Shown: positions 3,009 through 60,053 of the stretch, piece after piece | How the letters are laid out: every line of letters starts with the position of its first letter | How positions within the stretch are numbered: the stretch's first letter is position 1 | DNA from: Minisyncoccota bacterium | Lineage (GTDB): Bacteria; Patescibacteriota; Minisyncoccia; Phycocordibacterales; CAJQIN01 | NCBI GenBank assembly: GCA_905478465.1 | Contig: CAJQIN010000012.1 | Coordinates: forward strand, 98,890-158,942 | Reading direction: 5' to 3' | DNA length: 60,053 nucleotides | Notes under the pieces: generated by a model | The model's input: only the letters and a program-made list of their open reading frames with translations | Databases searched by the model: none | Told to the model about the DNA's origin: nothing | Program-made: the position numbers and the translations under genes

Positions 3009-4406
3009 TTATAACAATCCCGCCACAAACTGATATACAAAATACCAATAAAATATTCCACTTGCTATCAAAACCGTGTTAGTTATCCAACCCGGACGAA
3101 TAAACTGCGGTAATTTGAAGTTATTCAGGTATAACAACAAAGGTATGTAGATTGCCATAACTAATCCCCCCAAAACAGATGTAATTATTAATAGAGTAAA
3201 AGGTTGTTGAAATGGCACAAGAAGAGCACTGATAACAACAAAGGCAAACATCAATCCATAATACAAATGATGTATGGACACTCTGTTAGCCCACATAAAC
3301 ACAGGAATCATTTTTCCGACTCTTGAATTAGTATGAACAATATCTGAAACAATTCTTGTCAAAGCATCAAGTACTGTCCACATAACAGAGAAGAGCATTA
3401 GATATGCCATAAAAAGATACAATTTCTCTCCCCATATCCCCCAAGAATCACTAAAAATTTTTGCTTGTGCTGAGACAAGGTCTAACCCTTCTGGAATAAT
3501 TCCCTGGGGTGAAAGTACGGCATAAGCATTCACAGATAATAGAAGTAGCGTAACAAGACCCAGAAGCCAAAAAATAATACCCTGATCGATCCTCACGAAG
3601 GTCATCCAACCCTTCCAATGTTTTCTATTCTCAGGAGTATCTTCAAAGGTATACCCTGTTACAGAAACAGCTTCTGCTTTTCCTGAAATTGGATTCGCAA
3701 TACGCCCAACATACTTTGCCATACCCAGTTGTTTATCTCTGTACCATAATGAAATGGCCAAATTCAGCATTCCACCAGCACCAGCGAATACTATAGCCCC
3801 AAGTAATAATGACCAATCAGCATTATCTGGAACATATCCAAAATTAATAACACCCTGGAACATTTCAATAAGCAATGTTCCATTCAAGTTCTTGAAACTA
3901 ATAATAATAAGTAACAGAAAGAAAGTTGGTACGGTAAATTTTAGTGTTTTTTCCAAGACTCCATAGGCAACTTTTCCTGAAAATGTAATAGCAAGTACCA
4001 AAGCAAGAGATAACCATGACCAGACCATGTAACTTCCAAAACCAAACAAAGAAGAGAGTATTGTACCAAGTGCAGCAGCCCAAGCAGGCCATACATACAG
4101 CAAAATAGCAGCAAAAAACCAGAAAACAGGAGAGAAGCTCAATATCCGTGCAGACGACGTGAAGAAACTTTCTCCTGTTGCAAGTGCATGACGTGCAACC
4201 TCTTGGTTTATAAAATACTGTATTGTAATTCCAATCAATCCTAACCACAGAATAGCTAGACCATACTTAGATACTAAATGAGGCCACAAAATAAGTTCAC
4301 CTGTACCCATTGCCATTCCAACAACAACGATACCCACACCTATGGCTTTCTTCCAATTAAAAGGTGGTGGAAGTTCTCTATATTCTAACGATGGAATTGT
4401 ATTCAT
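3009..4406 (-). CDS. Nramp-family (APC superfamily) divalent metal transporter-like protein
   Basis: About 11 hydrophobic segments; LPPP..W...IG.G.......GTGELILWP N-terminal signature. Confidence 0.75.
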   Translation of the reverse strand: MNTIPSLEYRELPPPFNWKKAIGVGIVVVGMAMGTGELILWPHLVSKYGLAILWLGLIGITIQYFINQEVARHALATGESFFTSSARILSFSPVFWFFAAILLYVWPAWAAALGTILSSLFGFGSYMVWSWLSLALVLAITFSGKVAYGVLEKTLKFTVPTFFLLLIIISFKNLNGTLLIEMFQGVINFGYVPDNADWSLLLGAIVFAGAGGMLNLAISLWYRDKQLGMAKYVGRIANPISGKAEAVSVTGYTFEDTPENRKHWKGWMTFVRIDQGIIFWLLGLVTLLLLSVNAYAVLSPQGIIPEGLDLVSAQAKIFSDSWGIWGEKLYLFMAYLMLFSVMWTVLDALTRIVSDIVHTNSRVGKMIPVFMWANRVSIHHLYYGLMFAFVVISALLVPFQQPFTLLIITSVLGGLVMAIYIPLLLYLNNFKLPQFIRPGWITNTVLIASGIFYWYFVYQFVAGLL

Positions 4407-51332: not shown

Positions 51333-51917
51333 TTATTTATCTACGGCCTCACCTGCCAAAAGCTCATCTACCAAATCCTCAATACCCACTTTTGTCTTCG
51401 AAGAATATGGAAAAAGTTTATGTCCCTCCAATTGTTCACCCAGCTTTTGTAAGCGATGCTTACAATGAGATTTTTTAATCTTATCTATCTTATTCAAAAC
51501 AACAACAATTTCTTTTCCTGTTGTTTCTAATTCATTTAACATTTCTATATCATCAACAGTAGGTCCAATATTCGCATCAATGAGTAAGACTATCTTTTGA
51601 TTATGATGAGAAACAAAAAGATACCAAAATAGAAGCTTACTCAGCTTCTCTAATGTTTTCATTTTTGTCTTAGCAAAACCATAACCAGGTAAATCCACAA
51701 AATAATGAGTATCATTTATCAAAAAGACATTCATTTCCTGAGTTCGACCGGGAGTATTACTGGTTCTAGCCAACTTCTTTATTCCTGTTAGAGAATTCAT
51801 GAGACTAGACTTCCCCGCATTTGAACGACCAATAAAAGCGATCTGAGGTATTCCGTCTTCCAGAATCTCATTATCACCCTTTATTCCTCGCATAAATTTT
51901 GCAGAATTTATTTTCAT
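51333..51917 (-). CDS. engB: Ribosome biogenesis GTP-binding protein YihA/YsxC
   Basis: GRSNAGKSS, SNTPGRTQ, DLPGYG, NKID. Confidence 0.93.
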   Translation of the reverse strand: MKINSAKFMRGIKGDNEILEDGIPQIAFIGRSNAGKSSLMNSLTGIKKLARTSNTPGRTQEMNVFLINDTHYFVDLPGYGFAKTKMKTLEKLSKLLFWYLFVSHHNQKIVLLIDANIGPTVDDIEMLNELETTGKEIVVVLNKIDKIKKSHCKHRLQKLGEQLEGHKLFPYSSKTKVGIEDLVDELLAGEAVDK

Positions 51918-51985: not shown

Positions 51986-52249
51986 TTAATTATCAAATCT
52001 GTAATCAGTCACCTCATCAAGATTAACTCCATAATATTTTTGATGTACCACCTTTTGATCTTCAAAAATAGCATCATCCCAATTAAGATCCAGAAATTTT
52101 ACACCTTCACGAACTTTTTCTTCAGAAGTAGACTCTATCTCAAGAACCATTGGAATTTTTGGCCAATAATTTATTTCAAACAAAATACCATCTTTTTTAT
52201 ACCTGACAATTTTCTTTTCTTGGTATCGTACCAGAGGAATACCAGGCAC
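51986..52249 (-). pseudogene. 3' fragment of a CYTH (class IV adenylate cyclase-like) gene
   Basis: YQEKK..Y....FEI..WP.IP..LEIE...EE.V C-terminal CYTH pattern; no N-terminal ExExK half and no credible start. Confidence 0.6.
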
Positions 52250-52250
52250 T

Positions 52251-52808
52251 CCTAAAAATTCTGGTCAATGGTACAACGGAGCACATGAGCCATTAATTAC
52301 TAGGGAGCTCTTTGATTTGGTCCAAACGAACATGAAGAGTAATATTCTCGAGCCAAGGTCAAAACAAAAAGAGTTTGCGTTTACCAAAATAATGACTTGT
52401 GGACTTTGTGGTTCAGGTATTACTGCGGATGAAAAGTTTAAGAAGCAGAAGAATGGTAATGTCCACCGTTACGTTTATTACAAATGTACTCGCACCAGAG
52501 ACCCAAATTGTGATTGTGGTTTTATTAATGAAAACGACCTTATCTCACAGCTGCAGAATCTGATTAATGATATCGATATTAAAGTAGTACCAATGAGAGA
52601 CAAAATTACTGCTGAAGTGAAGCGGTACAAACAATTTCAACAAATGCTACTCGGAGACGAGATCCAGATTGTAATAAAAGATATCGATATCAGAGACTAC
52701 GCTAAATTCCTTCTTCGGGAAGGTTCCCTTGATGAGAAACGTGAACTCCTTAGTTGTTTAAAAAACAGTATTTTTTTAAACAAAAAACATATTCGAATTG
52801 CTCAATAA
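52251..52808 (+). pseudogene. 3' fragment of a large serine recombinase (end of Recombinase domain plus Zn ribbon)
   Basis: In-frame PKNSGQWYNGAHEPLIT..LF upstream of the ORF-track start; CGLCG...YYKC Zn ribbon; catalytic resolvase domain missing. Confidence 0.75.
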
Positions 52809-52830: not shown

Positions 52831-55800
52831 TTAAAGAACTGCTTTTAACTCTTCCTTATAATCATCGGGGAGGTTTATTTCTTTTAGTGTGAAAATTTCA
52901 TCAATCCTTCCTTGAAGCGTACGTTTTTGATCAGGCGGTGCAGAGTTCATGATATTCAGTAGACCTTGGTATATCTTTTCATGCTTCTTATAGCGGGGTT
53001 TAGTTTCAATAATGAGGTCAACTAAAGCATTGAGAGATACAACCGAACGGTGTCGTGAAAAGAAATCAAATACTTGTTCAGCTATTTGTATTTCTGTATC
53101 AGTCATTTTGTATTTTCTCGCAAGTAAGAAATATTTCTTTGTAACCAGAGACCACCTTTGAGGTTCAGATTGCTGGCCCATAAAAGTAATGTGGTCGCCA
53201 ACCAGCTCTGTTATTGCTCCTTTGTCGAGTAGTCCACAATCAGTGAAAATATCCAACAATGTAATACCTGTTTGCTGGATTTCAGCATTTGGGTTACGCA
53301 CTCTGTCTTTTACTGCATTAAATGCTGGCGTTCTCAAATCGTCACCATCTTGTTTGGTGTGTGCAATCAGGTTGGCCAGCTCAATGACTAGGTCGTGCCT
53401 GTTCTGTACGTGATGCTTCATTCTGCTAAATGAAGCGTTTGCGACCTTGTTGGCGTCAAAGTAGTTCTCTCTAGTTTGAAGCCATTGCACAACGTCCAAG
53501 CAGTTGTCTGTGTCAACGATTTTGCGACAAGCTAAAGTTTCAGCCACTTCTCGGTTTACCAAGCCAGCTTCTATAAGTTTTAACAAGGCCCCCTCTTCAC
53601 GGGTGACTCTTTCTCGCAAAATGTTCATGTGTGTATCAAGTAAGATGTCTTTATCTGTACTCGGTATGTGCTTCAAAAACTCAACAACTTCCTCAATTGG
53701 CACAGTTTTAAGTTGGTTGTCTATTATTGTCTTCATCTCACCGTCTAGTTCTGTCTTGTACGTATAAAGACGGGCATAAAGTGCGAGTAAGAAATCTATG
53801 ATTAACACTTTCTCTTTGCTTTCGTTTCTGTTATAGATCTGTGTCCACTCAGCAGCGAGCTGATGAACCAAGCCAGCATATTGTTGGTCACATTCATTCA
53901 CAAACCGCTTTATTGTTGTGAGTATATTTTCTAGAACCTCTTTCTTGGTCACTGACGAAGCATTGTCACCCAATGAAATAAATTGAGTTAAAATCGCCTT
54001 TTTATTTCTTGATGTATTTTCTGTTAGAGCAATCTTGCGTTGTACCCGCAATGCTTCGTCTTCTTGCGGTGAGAAATCGTTTAGGCTGATTGAGGTTATC
54101 AGAGCATCTTGAACTTGCTGTGGCAGTTCAAAAAGTCCTTTCATATTTTCGAGTGACTCGATTTCCTCGTAAAGAGTTAGGTTTTTCAGTGTTTCCTTCA
54201 GTCTTTTAATGGCTTCTGCATCTTTGTCTTCACTGAGTAGGATGGTGAGATATTTTGTCAATTCTAACTTGTAGTCAGGTATTTCAATCCTAGAGTCAAC
54301 GTCTGAATTGTTGCCCTCAAACACTTGGCTAAGCAAGTCAATCAGTCCATCAAACAGACGTTGTCTGTGAATACTATTAAGACCATTGGCCAAGAGGTAG
54401 TCTGCATTTTTTAGTTCAAATAGTTCGAGTCCGCCGAACTTGCTTTCATTTAGTATCAAATCCACAAATCTTTGAGTTTGCGTGTGGTGCATTTGTAGTT
54501 TGTGGGATTTTGCATACGCAATATAAGAGTGAATGCTGTTTCGAACGATAGAGTCATTAACTGTTTTATCAAGCTTGCTTAAAAGCATTCGCTCGAAGTT
54601 ATCTTTTTGATTTGCTTCTACGACTGAAAATATCTTCGCAAACGTATCAAGGTCTTCTTCCGATAGTGCTTCTAACATCTGTGTGCTACCAGAGATAGAA
54701 GTTGCCCCGTTTGGTGTTTTTAAGTATATAAATGGCTCAATATCGCTAGTCAAGACACTTTCAGTTGTTTTGAGGAAAGTGTACAACTCAGCATCCTTTA
54801 GCAACTCAGAGAAATATTTGTTTGGCACTTTCCCAGAGCTAACAATATGTTCCTGAAGATTGACCCAGTAATGTGGGTGATGTTTAAGCTCGTCAAATAG
54901 ATCTCGAAAATCTCTCTGGAATATAAGTACTTTGGCAAGCATTGCGATATTTCCCGACACCACGCCCTTTGGTTGCAGGGCGGGAGTGGGTGAGTTCTCA
55001 CGAGCAAGTGCGAGTTTATAAGCGGTCTGAAGTGAGTTTACAAACTGAATGATTTTTCGAGGATTGTCCTTGTGTGCTTGTGCAATAACTGAAATGAGAC
55101 TATTACTTCCCGGCACGTTACTTTTATTAAGTGCTTTTCTGGCAAAATCTTCGAGATCGTCGCTATAAATTGGCGGGATGCGAAGATTGACGTTGAAGAA
55201 CTTTCTCAAAAATTCGTCAATAATTTTATGTTCCTTGGGTTCATAACTGTAGTAGTTTCTCAGATGTCTAATGACAGCGTCTTCGTCACATTGCACAATG
55301 AAAGCAACTTTTTTATGACACACGTACGTTTTGATCGCAGTCAAAAGCTCAACAGCTTTTTCGTCAGAGACTCGATCAAGGTTGTCAATGATAATTACGA
55401 TTCTGTCGTATCCGTGCTGACTGCTCTCGATGACGTCCTTGTAGATAGATGAAAACTCTTCGATACCTTTCACAGGGTCTTTTGAATAGGTTACCTTCTT
55501 TTGCTCAAAGTACTTACCAAAAAAATCGAGAGCAGATGGGGTAAGAAAGGCAAAGAAACTTGTTCCTGCCACCAATGTAATTATCCATCGTTTATAGAGA
55601 AACAGCACTTCAGCAGGTGATAGTCCGCCAGGAACATAACTCACTAAATAGGCTACGAGAAGTGCTAAAAAGACTATGAGTGTGTAGAAAGGTAGAAACT
55701 TATTAAGAACAATTTCTCCAGTGGGTACAGTCTCAGTTTTCCTCAGATACATCCTCTCAACATCATGATTTTTAACACGGAGCTGTTGAGAGACAGTTGT

Positions 55801-56097
55801 TAAAAATTCCCTACGAAATGATCCTGCTTCATGTTTCCAAACATCGAAAGTTATAACCTTCACTTTTTTGTTCTTTAAGTAGTTTCGTTCCAGTGAGTCA
55901 CCAATACTGCTTTTTCCAGTACCCCAACCACCCAATAGTCCGATGGTCAAGTCGCTAGCATCTACCTTTCCACTCCACTCATCAATCATTTCTTGAAGTA
56001 TCGAAACAATATGAACGTGACCAAAATCATCGGCTTCATGTAAATTGAGAACCTTATCTTCAATTATCTTTATAGAGTTGTCTTTTTTTGACGACAT
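52831..56097 (-). CDS. KAP-family P-loop NTPase with two TM helices and a long helical C-terminal region
   Basis: Walker A GGWGTGKS, two TMs between the Walker motifs, Walker B IVIIIDNLDR, FLRKFFNV.LRIP; ATG 56097. Confidence 0.88.
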   Translation of the reverse strand: MSSKKDNSIKIIEDKVLNLHEADDFGHVHIVSILQEMIDEWSGKVDASDLTIGLLGGWGTGKSSIGDSLERNYLKNKKVKVITFDVWKHEAGSFRREFLTTVSQQLRVKNHDVERMYLRKTETVPTGEIVLNKFLPFYTLIVFLALLVAYLVSYVPGGLSPAEVLFLYKRWIITLVAGTSFFAFLTPSALDFFGKYFEQKKVTYSKDPVKGIEEFSSIYKDVIESSQHGYDRIVIIIDNLDRVSDEKAVELLTAIKTYVCHKKVAFIVQCDEDAVIRHLRNYYSYEPKEHKIIDEFLRKFFNVNLRIPPIYSDDLEDFARKALNKSNVPGSNSLISVIAQAHKDNPRKIIQFVNSLQTAYKLALARENSPTPALQPKGVVSGNIAMLAKVLIFQRDFRDLFDELKHHPHYWVNLQEHIVSSGKVPNKYFSELLKDAELYTFLKTTESVLTSDIEPFIYLKTPNGATSISGSTQMLEALSEEDLDTFAKIFSVVEANQKDNFERMLLSKLDKTVNDSIVRNSIHSYIAYAKSHKLQMHHTQTQRFVDLILNESKFGGLELFELKNADYLLANGLNSIHRQRLFDGLIDLLSQVFEGNNSDVDSRIEIPDYKLELTKYLTILLSEDKDAEAIKRLKETLKNLTLYEEIESLENMKGLFELPQQVQDALITSISLNDFSPQEDEALRVQRKIALTENTSRNKKAILTQFISLGDNASSVTKKEVLENILTTIKRFVNECDQQYAGLVHQLAAEWTQIYNRNESKEKVLIIDFLLALYARLYTYKTELDGEMKTIIDNQLKTVPIEEVVEFLKHIPSTDKDILLDTHMNILRERVTREEGALLKLIEAGLVNREVAETLACRKIVDTDNCLDVVQWLQTRENYFDANKVANASFSRMKHHVQNRHDLVIELANLIAHTKQDGDDLRTPAFNAVKDRVRNPNAEIQQTGITLLDIFTDCGLLDKGAITELVGDHITFMGQQSEPQRWSLVTKKYFLLARKYKMTDTEIQIAEQVFDFFSRHRSVVSLNALVDLIIETKPRYKKHEKIYQGLLNIMNSAPPDQKRTLQGRIDEIFTLKEINLPDDYKEELKAVL

Positions 56098-56128: not shown

Positions 56129-56174
56129 GAAGCATTCAAAAACAGCCTCATTTGAGGCTGTTTTTGAATGCTTC
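56129..56174 (-). terminator. 22-bp perfect inverted repeat downstream of the att-like tRNA fragment
   Basis: gaagcattcaaaaacagcctca-tt-tgaggctgtttttgaatgcttc. Confidence 0.7.
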
Positions 56175-56190
56175 TCGTGCTAGCACGAAT

Positions 56191-56201
56191 TGGTGACCCC
56201 A
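56191..56201 (-). repeat. att-like site matching a tRNA 3' end (TGGGGTC-A-CCA; tRNA-Glu-like)
   Basis: Minus strand reads TGGGGTCACCA then a 14-bp palindrome and a terminator, as after a tRNA gene, but there is no 5' tRNA half. Confidence 0.5.
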
Positions 56202-56327
56202 ATTAGAACGAATTGGAACCAGATAGTAAAGGAGTTGGTGGAGTGGAGGAAATTTAGACCTGAGCAAAGGATTGTATACGTATCAAGATAGGATTGAAAA
56301 ATAATTTCATAGGTATAAGGTGTAGTT

Positions 56328-56819
56328 ATGAGTATCCCAATAACAATTAATTTTTTTAGGGAGATCGAACTGTATCAGGAGCTTAAGACTCTTGATAAAA
56401 AATTTAAGAAAGACAAGGCTGCTGGATGGAAAGTTTGGAATACAGAAAAAGCAATACTAAGTTGGTGTGCAGACGACACATCTTTGGCAAACAAAAGAAC
56501 TTCGCAGAAAATTAGAAGAGCTGTCCTAAAGGAAGGTAGTTTAAGTCTAGCTGAAATTATCAAGGAGCACGATATTCATCTGACTGTCCCCATGGAAAAC
56601 CTAATAAAAAGAGGTTTCGCCGAGGGGAATAGAGAAGAAATTATTCTTACTAAAGAAGGCGTTCTAATGGGCACCGTTATCAATAAATCAAAAAAAATAT
56701 CTGGGAAGATTCATTACGAACTTTTCTATTGGCTGACTTGGGCAGCAATAATATCTGGATCTTTTATAGTTATACTTAACGCATTAGAAAAACTTTCTAG
56801 GTTGATACCTTGGACATAA
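56328..56819 (+). CDS. Hypothetical protein, possible winged helix plus C-terminal TM
   Basis: MENLIKRGFAE...I.LTKEG wing-like motif; hydrophobic C-terminal helix. Confidence 0.55.
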   Translation: MSIPITINFFREIELYQELKTLDKKFKKDKAAGWKVWNTEKAILSWCADDTSLANKRTSQKIRRAVLKEGSLSLAEIIKEHDIHLTVPMENLIKRGFAEGNREEIILTKEGVLMGTVINKSKKISGKIHYELFYWLTWAAIISGSFIVILNALEKLSRLIPWT

Positions 56820-56837
56820 TTAATAAGAAAAAGAACT

Positions 56838-57749
56838 ATGAATATAAAAATAAAAATGTTAAGTGTCATTATGGTGGTATTCATGCTTCCACAGATCGTT
56901 TTTGCTGCTTGGTGGAATCCTCTTAGTTGGTTTGATAATTGGAACTTTTTATTGTCAGAAAGAGAGAGCGAAACCGAGATTCTTGAACAAAGAGTTGCAG
57001 AGCTTGAAGATAAGCTGTTGGAAGAAAAAACTACTGAGGAAAATCTAACCAAAGAAGAGGTTGTGTCTGAAACTTCAGAAGAGGCTTCTGTAAAAAATAC
57101 TGAACCCATAGCACCTAGCGAACCAGATGTGTCATTGATTGTTGCTGCCTATTACCAAGAAACAGCTCTTGGACCAATATCTTCTTCTATTGACTTATTT
57201 AGAGCTTATTCAACGGAGCTTAATAGATACATACAAGGTATTCCAGAGGTGGCTAACAACTTAGAAACAATGGTTCTGATTGGTTTCGATGGAGATGCTG
57301 ATGGCCTTATAGATTTCATAGATACGTGGGAAGATGATTACTTAAGAGACTTTCAAGATCTCAAAAACATAGTTGACGGCTATATACAGGAAGTCGAGGA
57401 ACAAAAAAACTTATTGATAAGAGTGAGTGGTGATTTAAGAACGAAATATATACCACTAAGCCAAGAGTCAAAATATTCCCAAGAGATAGACACATATCAT
57501 AATCAAATCGATGTTTGGATTGAAGATATAAAAACCGCACAGAGCAGACTAACGAACAGATTTATTGAAGAAAAGGATTATATGAATGAGGCAGTTTATG
57601 AAGCCTCAGTAAATAGAGTGTCTGTGTCTATACCTTCTTTACCAACCTATTCTCCTCCACCCCCAAGTATCAGCTCTTACAAACCACCGATAACTACTTA
57701 TTGTGACAACTATGGAAATAGCATTTCTTGCACATCATATTCTTGGTAA
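56838..57749 (+). CDS. Secreted coiled-coil protein with WWNPLSWF motif
   Basis: Signal peptide ending VFA|A; WWNPLSWF; long amphipathic helices; Pro/Ser linker; C-terminal C..YGNSI.C. Confidence 0.7.
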   Translation: MNIKIKMLSVIMVVFMLPQIVFAAWWNPLSWFDNWNFLLSERESETEILEQRVAELEDKLLEEKTTEENLTKEEVVSETSEEASVKNTEPIAPSEPDVSLIVAAYYQETALGPISSSIDLFRAYSTELNRYIQGIPEVANNLETMVLIGFDGDADGLIDFIDTWEDDYLRDFQDLKNIVDGYIQEVEEQKNLLIRVSGDLRTKYIPLSQESKYSQEIDTYHNQIDVWIEDIKTAQSRLTNRFIEEKDYMNEAVYEASVNRVSVSIPSLPTYSPPPPSISSYKPPITTYCDNYGNSISCTSYSW

Positions 57750-57751
57750 AA

Positions 57752-58141
57752 ATGCCTAGGCCCACTAAACTAACAGAGCTTGCGGTCAAAAAACTAGAGG
57801 AGGCTTTTGCACTTGGTTGCACAGACCAAGAAGCCTGTGTTTATGCCAATATTTGCAAACAAACACTGTATAATTATCAGGCAAAAAATAAAGAGTTTTT
57901 AGACCGAAAAGAGCTGCTTAAATCTACACCTTTCCTAGAGGCGAGGATGGCTGTTATAAGGAATTTTAAGAAAGACCCGAGACTTGCTTTGAGATTCTTA
58001 GAAAGAAGAAAGAGTGACGAGTTTAATACTAGGCAAACAATAAATTCTGACCGAAAGGTTGAGATCACTTTTGATAGTGCTTTTAAAGAAAGTAAGAAAA
58101 AATCTGATATGGCAATAAGAGAATATTTGAGTAAGACTTGA
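57752..58141 (+). CDS. Phage terminase small subunit-like HTH protein
   Basis: MPRPTKLT N-terminus; homeodomain-like G.TD.EAC.YA.I...TLYNY; A...LERR...EF C-terminal pattern. Confidence 0.55.
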   Translation: MPRPTKLTELAVKKLEEAFALGCTDQEACVYANICKQTLYNYQAKNKEFLDRKELLKSTPFLEARMAVIRNFKKDPRLALRFLERRKSDEFNTRQTINSDRKVEITFDSAFKESKKKSDMAIREYLSKT

Positions 58142-58175
58142 AAAACTAACCCAAAAAGGATAGATTTGGTTAATA

Positions 58176-58427
58176 ATGAACGCCACTCATTCAGCCGACA
58201 TTAGCTCGGCAGACAACAAAAAATTGATAGTCTTAGAATTCTTAAAGGAAGAATGGGATCTTTCCCCTAAAAATAGTGGTGACGTGTTGATAAAAATCTC
58301 TGGAGAACGTGCCGCTATGCTAATGCGAATGACGGGCCTAGATTATTATCAACTTGATCGTGTCTTAGAAAGCTTTAAAGAAGATGGTCTTATTATGAGA
58401 CACGAATTTATTAACCCAGCAATGTAA
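58176..58427 (+). CDS. Hypothetical protein, possible winged helix
   Basis: 83-aa ORF; QLDRVLESFKEDGLI helix-wing pattern. Confidence 0.5.
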   Translation: MNATHSADISSADNKKLIVLEFLKEEWDLSPKNSGDVLIKISGERAAMLMRMTGLDYYQLDRVLESFKEDGLIMRHEFINPAM

Positions 58428-58429
58428 CC

Positions 58430-58864
58430 ATGTTTAATAACCTCTATATTGATTTTCCTAGTGATTTTGAAGAAAGATATGAAGAATACAAGGAAGGCAT
58501 TTTGGGCGTGACTAGTATCCAAGAAAAAGAGGTAAACGTATCCTACAATCACGTTACAGGTATAGGTTATATAAACTCTAAAAAATTTAGATTCACAGAC
58601 GGGACGTCCGAATACAGGATTTTTGAAAAATTATACAAAAGCATTAACTGTAAAGTTTCAAGGTATGACGTGCTTGAAGCAATCAAATTTTACGAAGATG
58701 GAGAAGATATTGATCCTGCAAGAAAAACAGCCGAAACAGAGGCAATAAACAAAGTTGCAAAGAGCTTAAGGTCTAAAACAGGATTAAACACAGAACACCT
58801 TGTTGTAAACAATGGAAATATGACCCTAGTGGGCGAGAATAAACCAGATAATACCCAAACGTAA
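58430..58864 (+). CDS. Hypothetical protein with OmpR-like C-terminal winged HTH
   Basis: EYRIFEKLY...KVSRYDVL...AINKVAKSLRSK pattern. Confidence 0.55.
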   Translation: MFNNLYIDFPSDFEERYEEYKEGILGVTSIQEKEVNVSYNHVTGIGYINSKKFRFTDGTSEYRIFEKLYKSINCKVSRYDVLEAIKFYEDGEDIDPARKTAETEAINKVAKSLRSKTGLNTEHLVVNNGNMTLVGENKPDNTQT

Positions 58865-58895
58865 CCCAAACTACACCTACATACGAAACCTTTTT

Positions 58896-58923
58896 AAAAA
58901 TAGACTAATAAGAGTCTATTTTT
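58896..58923 (+). terminator. Terminator
   Basis: aaaaatagact / agtctattttt. Confidence 0.6.
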
Positions 58924-59023
58924 TGTTTTTACAGACAATAGAACCTTTAATCTAGCAAGCCTGCTAAGGCGTTCGGCAGACTTGCTCTTGATTAGAGCCT
59001 TATAAGCATTAATAAAAAAAATA

Positions 59024-59269
59024 ATGAAAGCAAAAATTACTTATGTCGGCGGCTTAGAGAGAAGTAGGAACGGCGGCGTTTATAAGCTCGTTTCTCTACA
59101 GATACTTGAAGGGTCTGTATCAAGCGGACACGTTTATCTAAACCCAGAAAACAGGAATTATTCCAATTGGGAAAGCGTCCTCGAAGAAGGAAACTTACTA
59201 ACAGGTCTTGTTTGGAGAAATAAGAAAAAAAGGCTTATTGACGGAGATTCACCAGTAGAAAATTTGTAG
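59024..59269 (+). CDS. Small beta-rich hypothetical protein (OB-fold-like by eye)
   Basis: 81-aa ORF with A-rich leader; MKAKIT...SRNG...RNYSNW. Confidence 0.6.
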   Translation: MKAKITYVGGLERSRNGGVYKLVSLQILEGSVSSGHVYLNPENRNYSNWESVLEEGNLLTGLVWRNKKKRLIDGDSPVENL

Positions 59270-59271
59270 AA

Positions 59272-59463
59272 GTGATTAATCTTGAGTCGTTTAGAAAAAC
59301 TGACCCTGAACTAGGAGGTCTCAGCAATAAGGAAGTCGAAGAGATTCGACAGTATTTCTATGACTTCGGACAAATTATTTTTGAGCAATGGTGTGAAGAT
59401 AAGTTCGGTTCCAAAAATCCCCTTGGGTCTATTCACAATAAAGATAAGGATAGTATGCTTTAA
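59272..59463 (+). CDS. Small helical protein immediately upstream of the recombinase
   Basis: 63-aa ORF with GTG start, 2 nt after the previous stop and 2 nt before the LSR ATG. Confidence 0.6.
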   Translation: MINLESFRKTDPELGGLSNKEVEEIRQYFYDFGQIIFEQWCEDKFGSKNPLGSIHNKDKDSML

Positions 59464-59465
59464 AC

Positions 59466-60053
59466 ATGGACCAGAAAGAACTAAAAACAGGGATAATCTA
59501 TTGTCGAGTTTCCTCCTTAGAACAGGTTGAGAACACTAGCCTAGAATCACAAGAAGCTCGCTGTAGAGAGTATGCTGAAAAAGAAAACATAAAAGTTCTT
59601 AAAGTATTTATAGAAAAAGGAGAATCAGCAAAAACAGCCGATCGGACTAAGTTTCAAGAAGCACTACAATACTGCGGTTTAAAAAAGAGCTCTGTAGACA
59701 AATTTATCGTGTATAAACTTGACCGTTTCGCACGCAATCAAATAGACCATGTAACAACAAGAGCAATACTAACCAAGTGCGGAACATCTCTAGTCTCTGC
59801 TACCGAACCTATAAACGATGAACCCATTGGCCGACTTATGGAGGGCGTTTTATCAAGCTTTGCAGAATTTGATAATAATGTCAGAACGGAAAGATCAAAA
59901 GGAGGAATGTATGAAAAAGTTAAGCAAGGAATTTGGCAGTGGGGCGCTCCAATTGGGTATTACCGACCACACAAGGGATCTAACCTTGAAATAGATAAAG
60001 ACAAGAAATTACTTATACACTTGGCTTTTGTGGAATACGCCAAGGGAGGTCAC
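59466..60053 (+). CDS. Large serine recombinase, N-terminal catalytic part (runs off the window)
   Basis: Manual translation: IIYCRVSS.EQ (catalytic Ser), E.GESAKT.DR..F, YKLDRFARN, FAEFDN..R.ER..GGM...G.W.W.AP.GY; open to the window end. Confidence 0.95.
   Translation, partial: MDQKELKTGIIYCRVSSLEQVENTSLESQEARCREYAEKENIKVLKVFIEKGESAKTADRTKFQEALQYCGLKKSSVDKFIVYKLDRFARNQIDHVTTRAILTKCGTSLVSATEPINDEPIGRLMEGVLSSFAEFDNNVRTERSKGGMYEKVKQGIWQWGAPIGYYRPHKGSNLEIDKDKKLLIHLAFVEYAKGGH

Follow-up and report, generated by a model that had tools for sequence, protein, structure and literature searches.

Satellites of the SaPI/PICI type carry their own small terminase subunit (TerS), which marks satellite DNA for the large terminase subunit (TerL) of a helper phage; they integrate site-specifically, lack tail and lysis genes, and bring along variable cargo. 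The island that we describe here resembles them in these respects, redirection of helper packaging being the presumed role of its terS. It lies at the right-hand end of a 60,053-nt stretch of DNA (hereafter, the window) from a Minisyncoccota bacterium (GenBank assembly GCA_905478465.1, contig CAJQIN010000012.1, positions 98,890 to 158,942), and is an intact 4.76-kb mobile element of an ultra-small bacterium of the candidate phyla radiation (CPR) type, which targets a tRNA-Glu gene by means of a serine integrase. Its only phage-derived genes are this integrase, a large serine recombinase (LSR), and the small packaging gene. The genomes of Patescibacteria (CPR) are tiny, few plasmids or conjugative elements are known from them, and how genes flow among these bacteria is poorly understood. 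We regard the island as real, well bounded, and apparently an undescribed variant of the serine-integrase islands and phage hitchhikers, with a function that we infer; full-text literature searches turned up no account of such elements from this phylum.

PICIs encode a tyrosine integrase, a regulator of the alpA/stl type, and a primase-replicase, often along with capsid morphogenesis genes, and their median size is 9.5 kb (de Sousa et al. 2023, PMC10085698), whereas the island has an LSR instead of the tyrosine integrase, no primase-replicase, no capsid gene, and a length of 4.76 kb. Compared with the PICI core used by SatelliteFinder, it possesses an integrase (a serine one) and a small terminase without tail or holin genes, lacks the primase-replicase and capsid morphogenesis genes, and would not pass the rule of four out of five core components (PMC10085698). 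An earlier note on this DNA had stated that satellites usually have tyrosine integrases; this is right as a generalization, but PLE of Vibrio cholerae and many of the marine VEIMEs use serine recombinases (PMC9618062). PLE is a satellite that, like the island, uses an LSR for its integration and excision (PMC9618062; PMC10085698). It differs in its length of ~18 kb, its RepA, nickase, CapR, and many other specific genes, and its restriction to Vibrio, and the island has none of the PLE markers.

The VEIMEs, especially those of the serine-recombinase “module 3,” are likewise small and integrative, and many combine a serine recombinase with TerS and have no capsid-remodeling genes. Their TerS homologs are close to those of co-occurring phages, and they are found in virions (Eppley et al. 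2022, PMC9618062). The island comes from marine metagenomes too, as its SOLA sample names indicate. However, VEIMEs are defined by their recovery from virus particles as concatemers, and module 3 was linked to Cyanobacteria and Verrucomicrobia and often has plasmid-like replication genes (PMC9618062), in contrast to the family of the island, which belongs to Patescibacteria and has no recognizable replication gene. PICMIs of Vibrionaceae, like the island, are very small (6.1 kb) and have no capsid-remodeling genes, and concatemers of this 6-kb satellite are packaged in full-size helper capsids (PMC10803314). Their excision needs a small gene that overlaps the integrase gene (PMC10803314), to which an open reading frame (ORF) of 63 amino acids (aa) abutting the LSR gene of the island may be a parallel. 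The PICMI core consists of a tyrosine integrase, AlpA, and a primase, without terS and next to fis, whereas the island has none of the three, has a terS, and targets tRNA-Glu.

Tycheposons, known from Prochlorococcus and other marine bacteria, also target tRNA genes, and some are PICI-like and carry a terS. Islands of this kind grow by serial integration, which leaves behind integrase fragments and partial tRNAs (Hackl et al., 10.1101/2020.12.28.424599), an accretion model that fits the trxB-tsaD region in which our island lies, with its LSR remnant and KAP gene. However, 474 of the 501 tycheposons use a specific clade of tyrosine recombinases, and they carry replication modules, whereas the family of the island uses LSRs. 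Finally, in the ssrA islands of Dehalococcoides every gene for the serine recombinase DsiB overlaps the att repeat with its 3′ end, and these islands too accrete in tandem; McMurdie et al. (2011, PMC3146451) suggested that DsiB is perhaps complete only on the circle. They differ from the island in their tmRNA target, in a six-gene integration module with a second small serine recombinase (DsiA) and ParB, and in the lack of a terS.

Boundaries and gene content of the island

The window ends where contig C12 of the metagenome-assembled genome (MAG; 927 kb in 50 contigs) ends. This end cuts through the LSR gene, the remainder of which is absent from the rest of the MAG assembly. We located an 81-aa ORF of the island on 22 contigs of other assemblies, including two of ~135 kb each (L031 and L032), which match the window with 100% identity along 11,030 bases and continue beyond its end. 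These two contigs supply the complete LSR of 502 aa together with the right flank, in which a tRNA-Glu(ttc) on the opposite strand is followed by a tRNA-Ser, a UbiA-family gene, a gene for a LexA-like S24 peptidase, a tRNA-Val, and tsaD. Within the MAG, the contig-end partner of C12 is probably C26, which carries tsaD. An ORF listing places the eight genes of the island at 56328-60053 of the window, all on the + strand, in agreement with the eight same-strand ORFs of the earlier note. The features of the island are as follows, with coordinates on the window unless L031 is named.

56190-56219, + strand: attL, with the 10-bp core TTGGTGACCC at 56190-56199, then the element-side arm ending in TGGAAC at 56214-56219
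56328-56819, + strand: cargo ORF of 163 aa with a C-terminal hydrophobic/transmembrane helix (residues 132-154); no family match (Pfam, PHROGs)
56838-57749, + strand: cargo ORF of 303 aa, acidic, with an N-terminal hydrophobic signal/anchor segment (residues 3-28); no family match (Pfam, PHROGs)
57752-58141, + strand: orphan TerS homolog of 129 aa (phrog_4102, 1e-17; phrog_309, 4e-8)
58176-58427, + strand: protein of 83 aa, possible winged helix (HTH_29, E 0.013, below cut-off)
58430-58864, + strand: protein of 144 aa with a C-terminal-type domain of unknown function at residues ~35-137
59024-59269, + strand: ORF of 81 aa, the first of a unit formed by this ORF, the 63-aa ORF, and the LSR (ORF listing)
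59272-59463, + strand: ORF of 63 aa, its stop 2 nt ahead of the LSR start
59466-60053, + strand: LSR N-terminus, residues 1-196 of 502 (Resolvase, 1e-34), cut by the contig end
L031:10443-11951: full LSR gene, its last 29 nt overlapping the 3′ end of the convergent tRNA-Glu(ttc)
L031:11923-11997: tRNA-Glu(ttc), attR, convergent to the LSR gene

The core TTGGTGACCC at the left end is a displaced copy of the tRNA-Glu 3′ end and is repeated inside the tRNA-Glu gene at L031:11922-11931. This 10-mer would be expected 0.04 times in the window by chance, and only one other copy occurs there. When attP is rebuilt from the left side of attR and the right side of attL, its junction reads ...GAGAAATCTAATTTGGTGACCCCAATTAGAACGAATTGGAACC... 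and shows dyad symmetry around TGAC, with 9 of 15 positions symmetric, as is expected for the site of a serine integrase; the predicted junction of the empty attB reads ...GCTAGCACGAATTGGTGACCCTACAGGGAATCGAACC.... The two cores are 4755 bp apart, and our analysis shows that the DNA from 56190 to virtual position 60945 is a discrete integrative element of this size, inserted by the LSR into the 3′ end of tRNA-Glu(ttc). The start given in the earlier note, 56191, falls on a real boundary, inside the attL core. That note had also raised the possibility of a full prophage in the flanking sequence; in L031/L032 both flanks are chromosomal, with no prophage in either. We considered and rejected a chimera arising from a split LSR or a circular contig, in which a C-terminal LSR fragment encoded at 52251-52808 and the N-terminal one at the window end would belong to one gene cut when a circle was linearized, as the full 502-aa LSR continues in L031/L032 and the left fragment is merely 30% identical to it.

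Among the eight genes, only TerS and the LSR are recognizable. Pfam, PHROGs, and PADLOC gave no match to capsid, portal, TerL, tail, primase, or Rep families among the island genes, consistent with the earlier note, which had seen no capsid, portal, TerL, or primase gene in this stretch. With Pfam and PHROGs, no lysis genes were recognized on the island and there was no match to AlpA or MerR, the weak winged-helix candidates at 58176-58864 being the nearest to a regulator. PADLOC matched no island gene to a known defense family. The 81-aa ORF, the 63-aa ORF, and the LSR gene are separated by gaps of 2 nt, and the 63-aa ORF is homologous to an 82-aa ORF at the equivalent position in the closest relative of the island (L134). 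The 63-aa ORF is a candidate excision cofactor.

The orphan terS homolog

The TerS-like protein has 45 homologs, 47-70% identical to it and none of them named, and Pfam gave it no significant match and no TerS model. On long contigs, the homologs are encoded directly upstream of TerL, portal, and capsid genes, with at least three families of TerL represented. We inspected the best 80 of 225 relatives in IMG/VR, 78 of which had enough downstream DNA, and a TerL-sized ORF adjoins the TerS homolog in 76 of these 78 viral loci, the other two being split TerL matches. The island protein is full length (129 aa vs. 112-164 aa in the homologs) rather than a bare helix–turn–helix (HTH), with a highly conserved N-terminal HTH portion of ~95 residues and a variable C-terminus, and it is 55-65% identical to the TerL-adjacent phage proteins. 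An assignment to a non-packaging HTH family, which the earlier note had named as the result that would speak against its proposal, is therefore not what these loci indicate. An AlphaFold2 model of the protein (mean pLDDT 76.5) is all-helical with an N-terminal HTH; its best fold matches in the PDB by Foldseek, the TerS of Sf6 (gp1) and 2ao9, are weak (E 0.14, TM 0.39), and a profile search of PDB sequences returned nothing. No TerL lies beside the gene, in the element and its relatives alike, and the closest TerS relatives with readable context also sit in elements. We conclude that the gene is a genuine terS homolog that stands as an orphan in the element.

One alternative, which we consider unlikely, is that the island is transferred in another way (in vesicles, by natural transformation, or through the type IV machinery that is common in these bacteria). 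The TerS-like protein would then be a co-opted DNA-binding accessory, such as a recombination directionality factor (RDF) or a transcriptional regulator of the LSR operon. In line with this, the conserved part of the protein is its N-terminal HTH, the gene is always linked to the LSR gene (usually upstream and on the same strand), and the elements contain no replication or packaging partner. The Dehalococcoides ssrA islands also provide a precedent, as they show a similar overlap of LSR and att and have been read as integrative mobilizable elements whose transfer route is not known (PMC3146451). However, a co-opted accessory does not account well for the retention of full TerS length and of the identity to TerL-adjacent phage proteins, and the separate small ORF directly ahead of the LSR is a better RDF candidate. 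Moreover, where phages carry this LSR clade, the 10 kb around the LSR gene contain no TerS-family gene, and where they carry the TerS family, there is no LSR nearby (an LSR of the module type was found in none of the 80 inspected IMG/VR loci). This indicates that the two genes are not obligate partners, and weakens the case for an RDF role.

A recurrent family of elements

The same arrangement, in which terS is followed by an LSR gene that runs into a tRNA 3′ end, with no TerL, is found in at least 12 loci besides the window, mostly from Patescibacteria. These are L009, L015/L014, L016, L026, L164, L134-L138, L140, L143, and L145; L009, L015/L014, L016, and L164 are from metagenomes, and L026 is from a 147-kb Saccharibacteria contig. 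Across the phylum of the window, the TerS family is present in 16 of the 401 species surveyed, at least 9 of which have terS, the LSR, and a convergent tRNA without TerL, and only one examined has terS with TerL. None of 60 closer relatives of the window's genome has the TerS-like gene (0/60), which indicates that its presence is sporadic and accessory. (Pro)phages that carry the same TerS family do exist in the phylum (L030 and L144).

The LSR frame extends 15-93 nt into the convergent tRNA in all 11 loci examined; L016 has an LSR without tRNA overlap. A candidate attL could be assigned in seven elements, and in each (7/7) a copy of the element's own tRNA 3′ end is followed exactly 23 nt on, counted from TGG, by TGGAAC. 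The targets of these bounded elements differ, comprising tRNA-Glu, -Met, -Lys, and -Gln, and the fixed spacing across different targets is strong evidence that the att sites are real. The seven elements range from 4.8 to 9.6 kb, within a range of 3-10 kb for the family. In an all-against-all comparison of their ORFs, only the LSR and TerS are common to all elements; an XRE-type HTH gene lies upstream of terS in four, and the LSR of the closest relative, L134, is 54% identical to that of the window element. A census of 63 ORFs of the seven bounded elements with Pfam and PHROGs found no capsid, portal, TerL, tail, primase, Rep, helicase, or relaxase gene. We are highly confident that the island is a bounded LSR element that belongs to this recurrent TerS and LSR family, which is apparently undescribed. 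The family is also a compact source of serine integrases that target tRNA genes and whose att sites are readily inferred. Here too, what our analysis shows is site-specific integration at tRNA 3′ ends by an LSR, with a conserved orphan terS and no genes for particles, conjugation, or replication.

The TerS and LSR ORFs are intact and under purifying selection (pN 0.20-0.49 vs. pS 0.79-0.83, with synonymous sites saturated). Comparison of L015 with L016, whose TerS proteins are 66% identical and whose LSRs are merely 30% identical, points to modular exchange between packaging and integration parts. The two loci (L015:2868-4505 and L016:3313-4764) have in common a module of an XRE gene, terS, and a gene for a protein of 235/238 aa that is 52% identical between them. 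The 144-aa protein of the window element, considered as a third core gene, is unrelated to these 235/238-aa proteins and absent from all other fetched loci, and was rejected as such. At the left end of the 8.7-kb element in L026, two partial copies of the tRNA-Met 3′ end (L026:3955-3985 and 4124-4160) lie 170 nt apart, which suggests repeated integration at a single site.

The recurrence bears on the origin of the island. The earlier note had proposed either a new and very small satellite or a degraded prophage class in CPR, and the first of these is upheld as far as a new, very small class in CPR is concerned, given the nine or more TerS-bearing species and the further metagenome contigs. The second, in which the terS-side and integrase-side ends of a prophage were left after an internal deletion, we regard as very unlikely. 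In its favor, both conserved genes are phage-derived. Related LSRs with 28-34% identity are encoded on IMG/VR contigs of phage size, and some overlap a tRNA, as in L147 and L154, where the LSR sits at the end of a 46-47-kb viral contig beside a tRNA; and on the left of our element, at a distance of 3.4 kb, there is the remnant of a decayed LSR. However, TerS and LSR are kept in at least 12 divergent elements and never with a TerL, portal, capsid, or tail fragment, their ORFs are intact and selected, the att sites, with their conserved arm motif, are intact, and the TerS module recombines with different LSRs. Random decay would not retain the same two intact genes each time, and we therefore reject degradation as the main explanation.

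The cargo of the window element consists of membrane or secreted proteins, whereas relatives carry SRAP with a Y-family polymerase, Mrr, PIN, NUDIX, nucleases, and others. Islands of 3-10 kb with an integrase and a packaging-specificity gene could explain how accessory and defense genes (restriction enzymes, toxins, repair genes) move in Patescibacteria. The defense-type cargo of family members (Mrr, PIN, nucleases) also raises the question of whether the island is an anti-phage decoy, a defense island for the benefit of the host whose orphan TerS competes for phage TerL and derails packaging. The window copy adjoins a KAP NTPase that matches QatA/PifA models, and satellites are known to interfere with helper packaging by proteins that target TerS, such as Ppi of SaPIs and Rpp of PICIs. 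However, the element itself matches no known defense family, a decoy would leave unexplained the strict coupling of TerS to an intact integrase and intact att sites, and interference and hitchhiking are not mutually exclusive. We therefore judge a decoy to be quite improbable.

Packaging by helper phages as the favored reading

Taken together, a bounded island and a hitchhiker function would make this element a minimal, satellite-like phage hitchhiker, a combined reading to which we give about an even chance of being correct. The family probably travels in the capsids of other phages. In the mechanism that we propose, infection by a phage with a compatible TerL would lead the LSR to excise the element, possibly with help from the small ORF upstream of the LSR. 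The TerS of the element would then recognize a pac site in the element DNA and bring in the TerL of the helper, and headful packaging, as in PICMIs and VEIMEs (PMC10803314, PMC9618062), would put element DNA into normal helper capsids. Helper or host functions would have to generate the concatemers, or else packaging might start in situ on the integrated DNA. Once the element has reached a new cell, recombination by the LSR between attP and the 3′ end of the tRNA would insert it.

Several observations weigh against this reading. Amplification is its weak point, as the element has no replication gene, unlike PICIs, PICMIs, and PLE, and the source of concatemers is unexplained. The modeled fold of the TerS-like protein is only weakly similar to solved TerS structures. 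In a TerS tree, element and phage sequences are interspersed and unresolved (12 label changes vs. a mean of 12.4 for shuffled labels), so that the tree shows neither coevolution with phages nor a single clade of elements. A search for circular forms, suggested by the earlier note, gave a negative result: in a collection of 5.8 billion proteins, the rebuilt free-form LSR of 526 aa retrieved the integrated form of 502 aa only. The exact attP junction was not found in JGI metagenomes or IMG/VR; for the JGI metagenomes this negative is uninformative, since a control search with the element-side arm alone was also empty there and this collection therefore lacks even the integrated form. The empty site was not seen either, the element being present in all 13 contigs with the neighboring KAP gene (13/13); two same-genus genomes (G001 and G002) were tried for a comparison of attB and discarded, as their trxB-tsaD region is entirely different. 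The MAG contains no TerL homolog or prophage, no element-type contig occurred among the inspected IMG/VR matches, and neither a virion-derived copy nor a helper phage was found for the element.

If the family is a satellite, it would extend the lower limit of what a satellite needs, as it has neither a replication module nor capsid genes. A broader version, which we put forward tentatively and hold to be rather doubtful, is that of phylum-wide “two-gene” satellites, consisting of terS and a tRNA-targeting serine integrase without replication or capsid genes of their own, in which a change of the integrase tail, from an amphipathic tail in the form of 526 aa to the form of 502 aa, would give the element a built-in sense of its free or integrated state.

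Predicted exchange of the integrase tail upon integration

The full 502-aa LSR has the domains Resolvase (PF00239), Recombinase (PF07508), and a zinc ribbon (PF13408), and the crossover lies a few codons ahead of its stop. In the integrated form the protein ends in ...SNLVTLQGIEP*, its final codons being antisense to the tRNA. As attP falls within the LSR ORF, the free form would encode 526 aa with a different tail of 31 residues, and the rebuilt free-form LSR is predicted to end in ...SNLVTPIRTNWNQIVKELVEWRKFRPEQRIVYVSR*. Joining window 56190-56291 with L031:11900-11951 gives the exchange residue by residue, with integration replacing the predicted 31-residue tail PIRTNWNQIVKELVEWRKFRPEQRIVYVSR by six tRNA-antisense codons (LQGIEP). 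The LSR tail would thus be exchanged between the free and the integrated forms, which makes the island a predicted natural case of integration rewriting the C-terminus of the integrase itself. In six of the seven elements the LSR frame continues through attL for 24-38 codons without a stop, and the other two frames are mostly short. We also considered and rejected a conserved “NWN” motif in the tail as a protein feature: the motif is chiefly one of DNA (TGGAAC) and lies in another frame in L009 and L143. Our claim is accordingly limited to the tail swap and does not extend to a conserved tail sequence.

The tail swap may serve to control directionality or stability. Other related viral LSRs, which have no tRNA nearby, have a tail after a tRNA-like core and end in -AAA, -EAA, -MAA, or -GAA. 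Individual examples are the endings -LLAAA (L148:11420-11539), -VMEAA (L151:11380-11521), -FDMAA (L152:2380-2596), and -LKGAA (L155:5876-6056). These endings are reminiscent of ssrA-like degradation tags, and if they are such tags, the enzyme would lose a degron upon integration, as happens in the integration-dependent immunity of mycobacteriophages. The MAG has three more LSR genes, on contigs C2 (27049-34365) and C17 (20039-21574), 23-26% identical to the LSR of the island.

Other genes of the island and its left surroundings

Residues 35-137 of the 144-aa protein correspond to a C-terminal domain in 176 representative proteins of 145-447 aa, retrieved by a full HMMER scan (a word-index search had retrieved only the protein itself). 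None of 10 scanned proteins with this domain has a Pfam match (0/10). The domain is an uncharacterized family that is probably DNA binding and, by eye, resembles an OmpR-type winged helix; a single-sequence fold of the protein was unusable (pLDDT 36.5). There is no structured RNA in the element, the Rfam search having returned two tRNAs only, and a scan for promoters and terminators gave results similar to those for shuffled sequence (10 promoter-like sites vs. 14.2, and 5 terminator-like sites vs. 4.0).

To the left of attL, the window contains the following features.

56129-56174: perfect inverted repeat of 22+22 nt with a 2-nt center, outside the element, between the displaced tRNA 3′ end and the start of the KAP gene
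52831-56097, - strand: KAP-family NTPase of 1088 aa, QatA/PifA-like, left neighbor of the element and cargo of an older island
52251-52808, + strand: 3′ part of another LSR gene, which retains the last portion of the recombinase domain together with zinc ribbon and tail; 30% identical to the element LSR

The inverted repeat is probably the old terminator of the tRNA, although its length is close to that of a serine-integrase site. In the KAP NTPase, the matches to the QatA, PifA, and PDC-S20 defense models are confined to the N-terminal third, and the other ~700 aa are unmatched. A GTPase of the EngB/YsxC type is encoded at 51333-51917 (- strand), within the variable trxB-tsaD interval, and has no clear ortholog in two same-genus genomes (weak matches with E 8e-4, or none). 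The LSR remnant starts abruptly where a host gene on the - strand (51986-52249) is truncated; this gene is CYTH-like by eye, with no match to PF01928. Remnant and truncated gene appear to be a relic of some older insertion or deletion. The trxB-tsaD interval of a same-genus genome contains entirely different genes, which places the element in a variable region of the chromosome. These left surroundings fit the pattern that would be expected from serial integration at a single tRNA while older elements decay, as has been described for tycheposon islands (10.1101/2020.12.28.424599).

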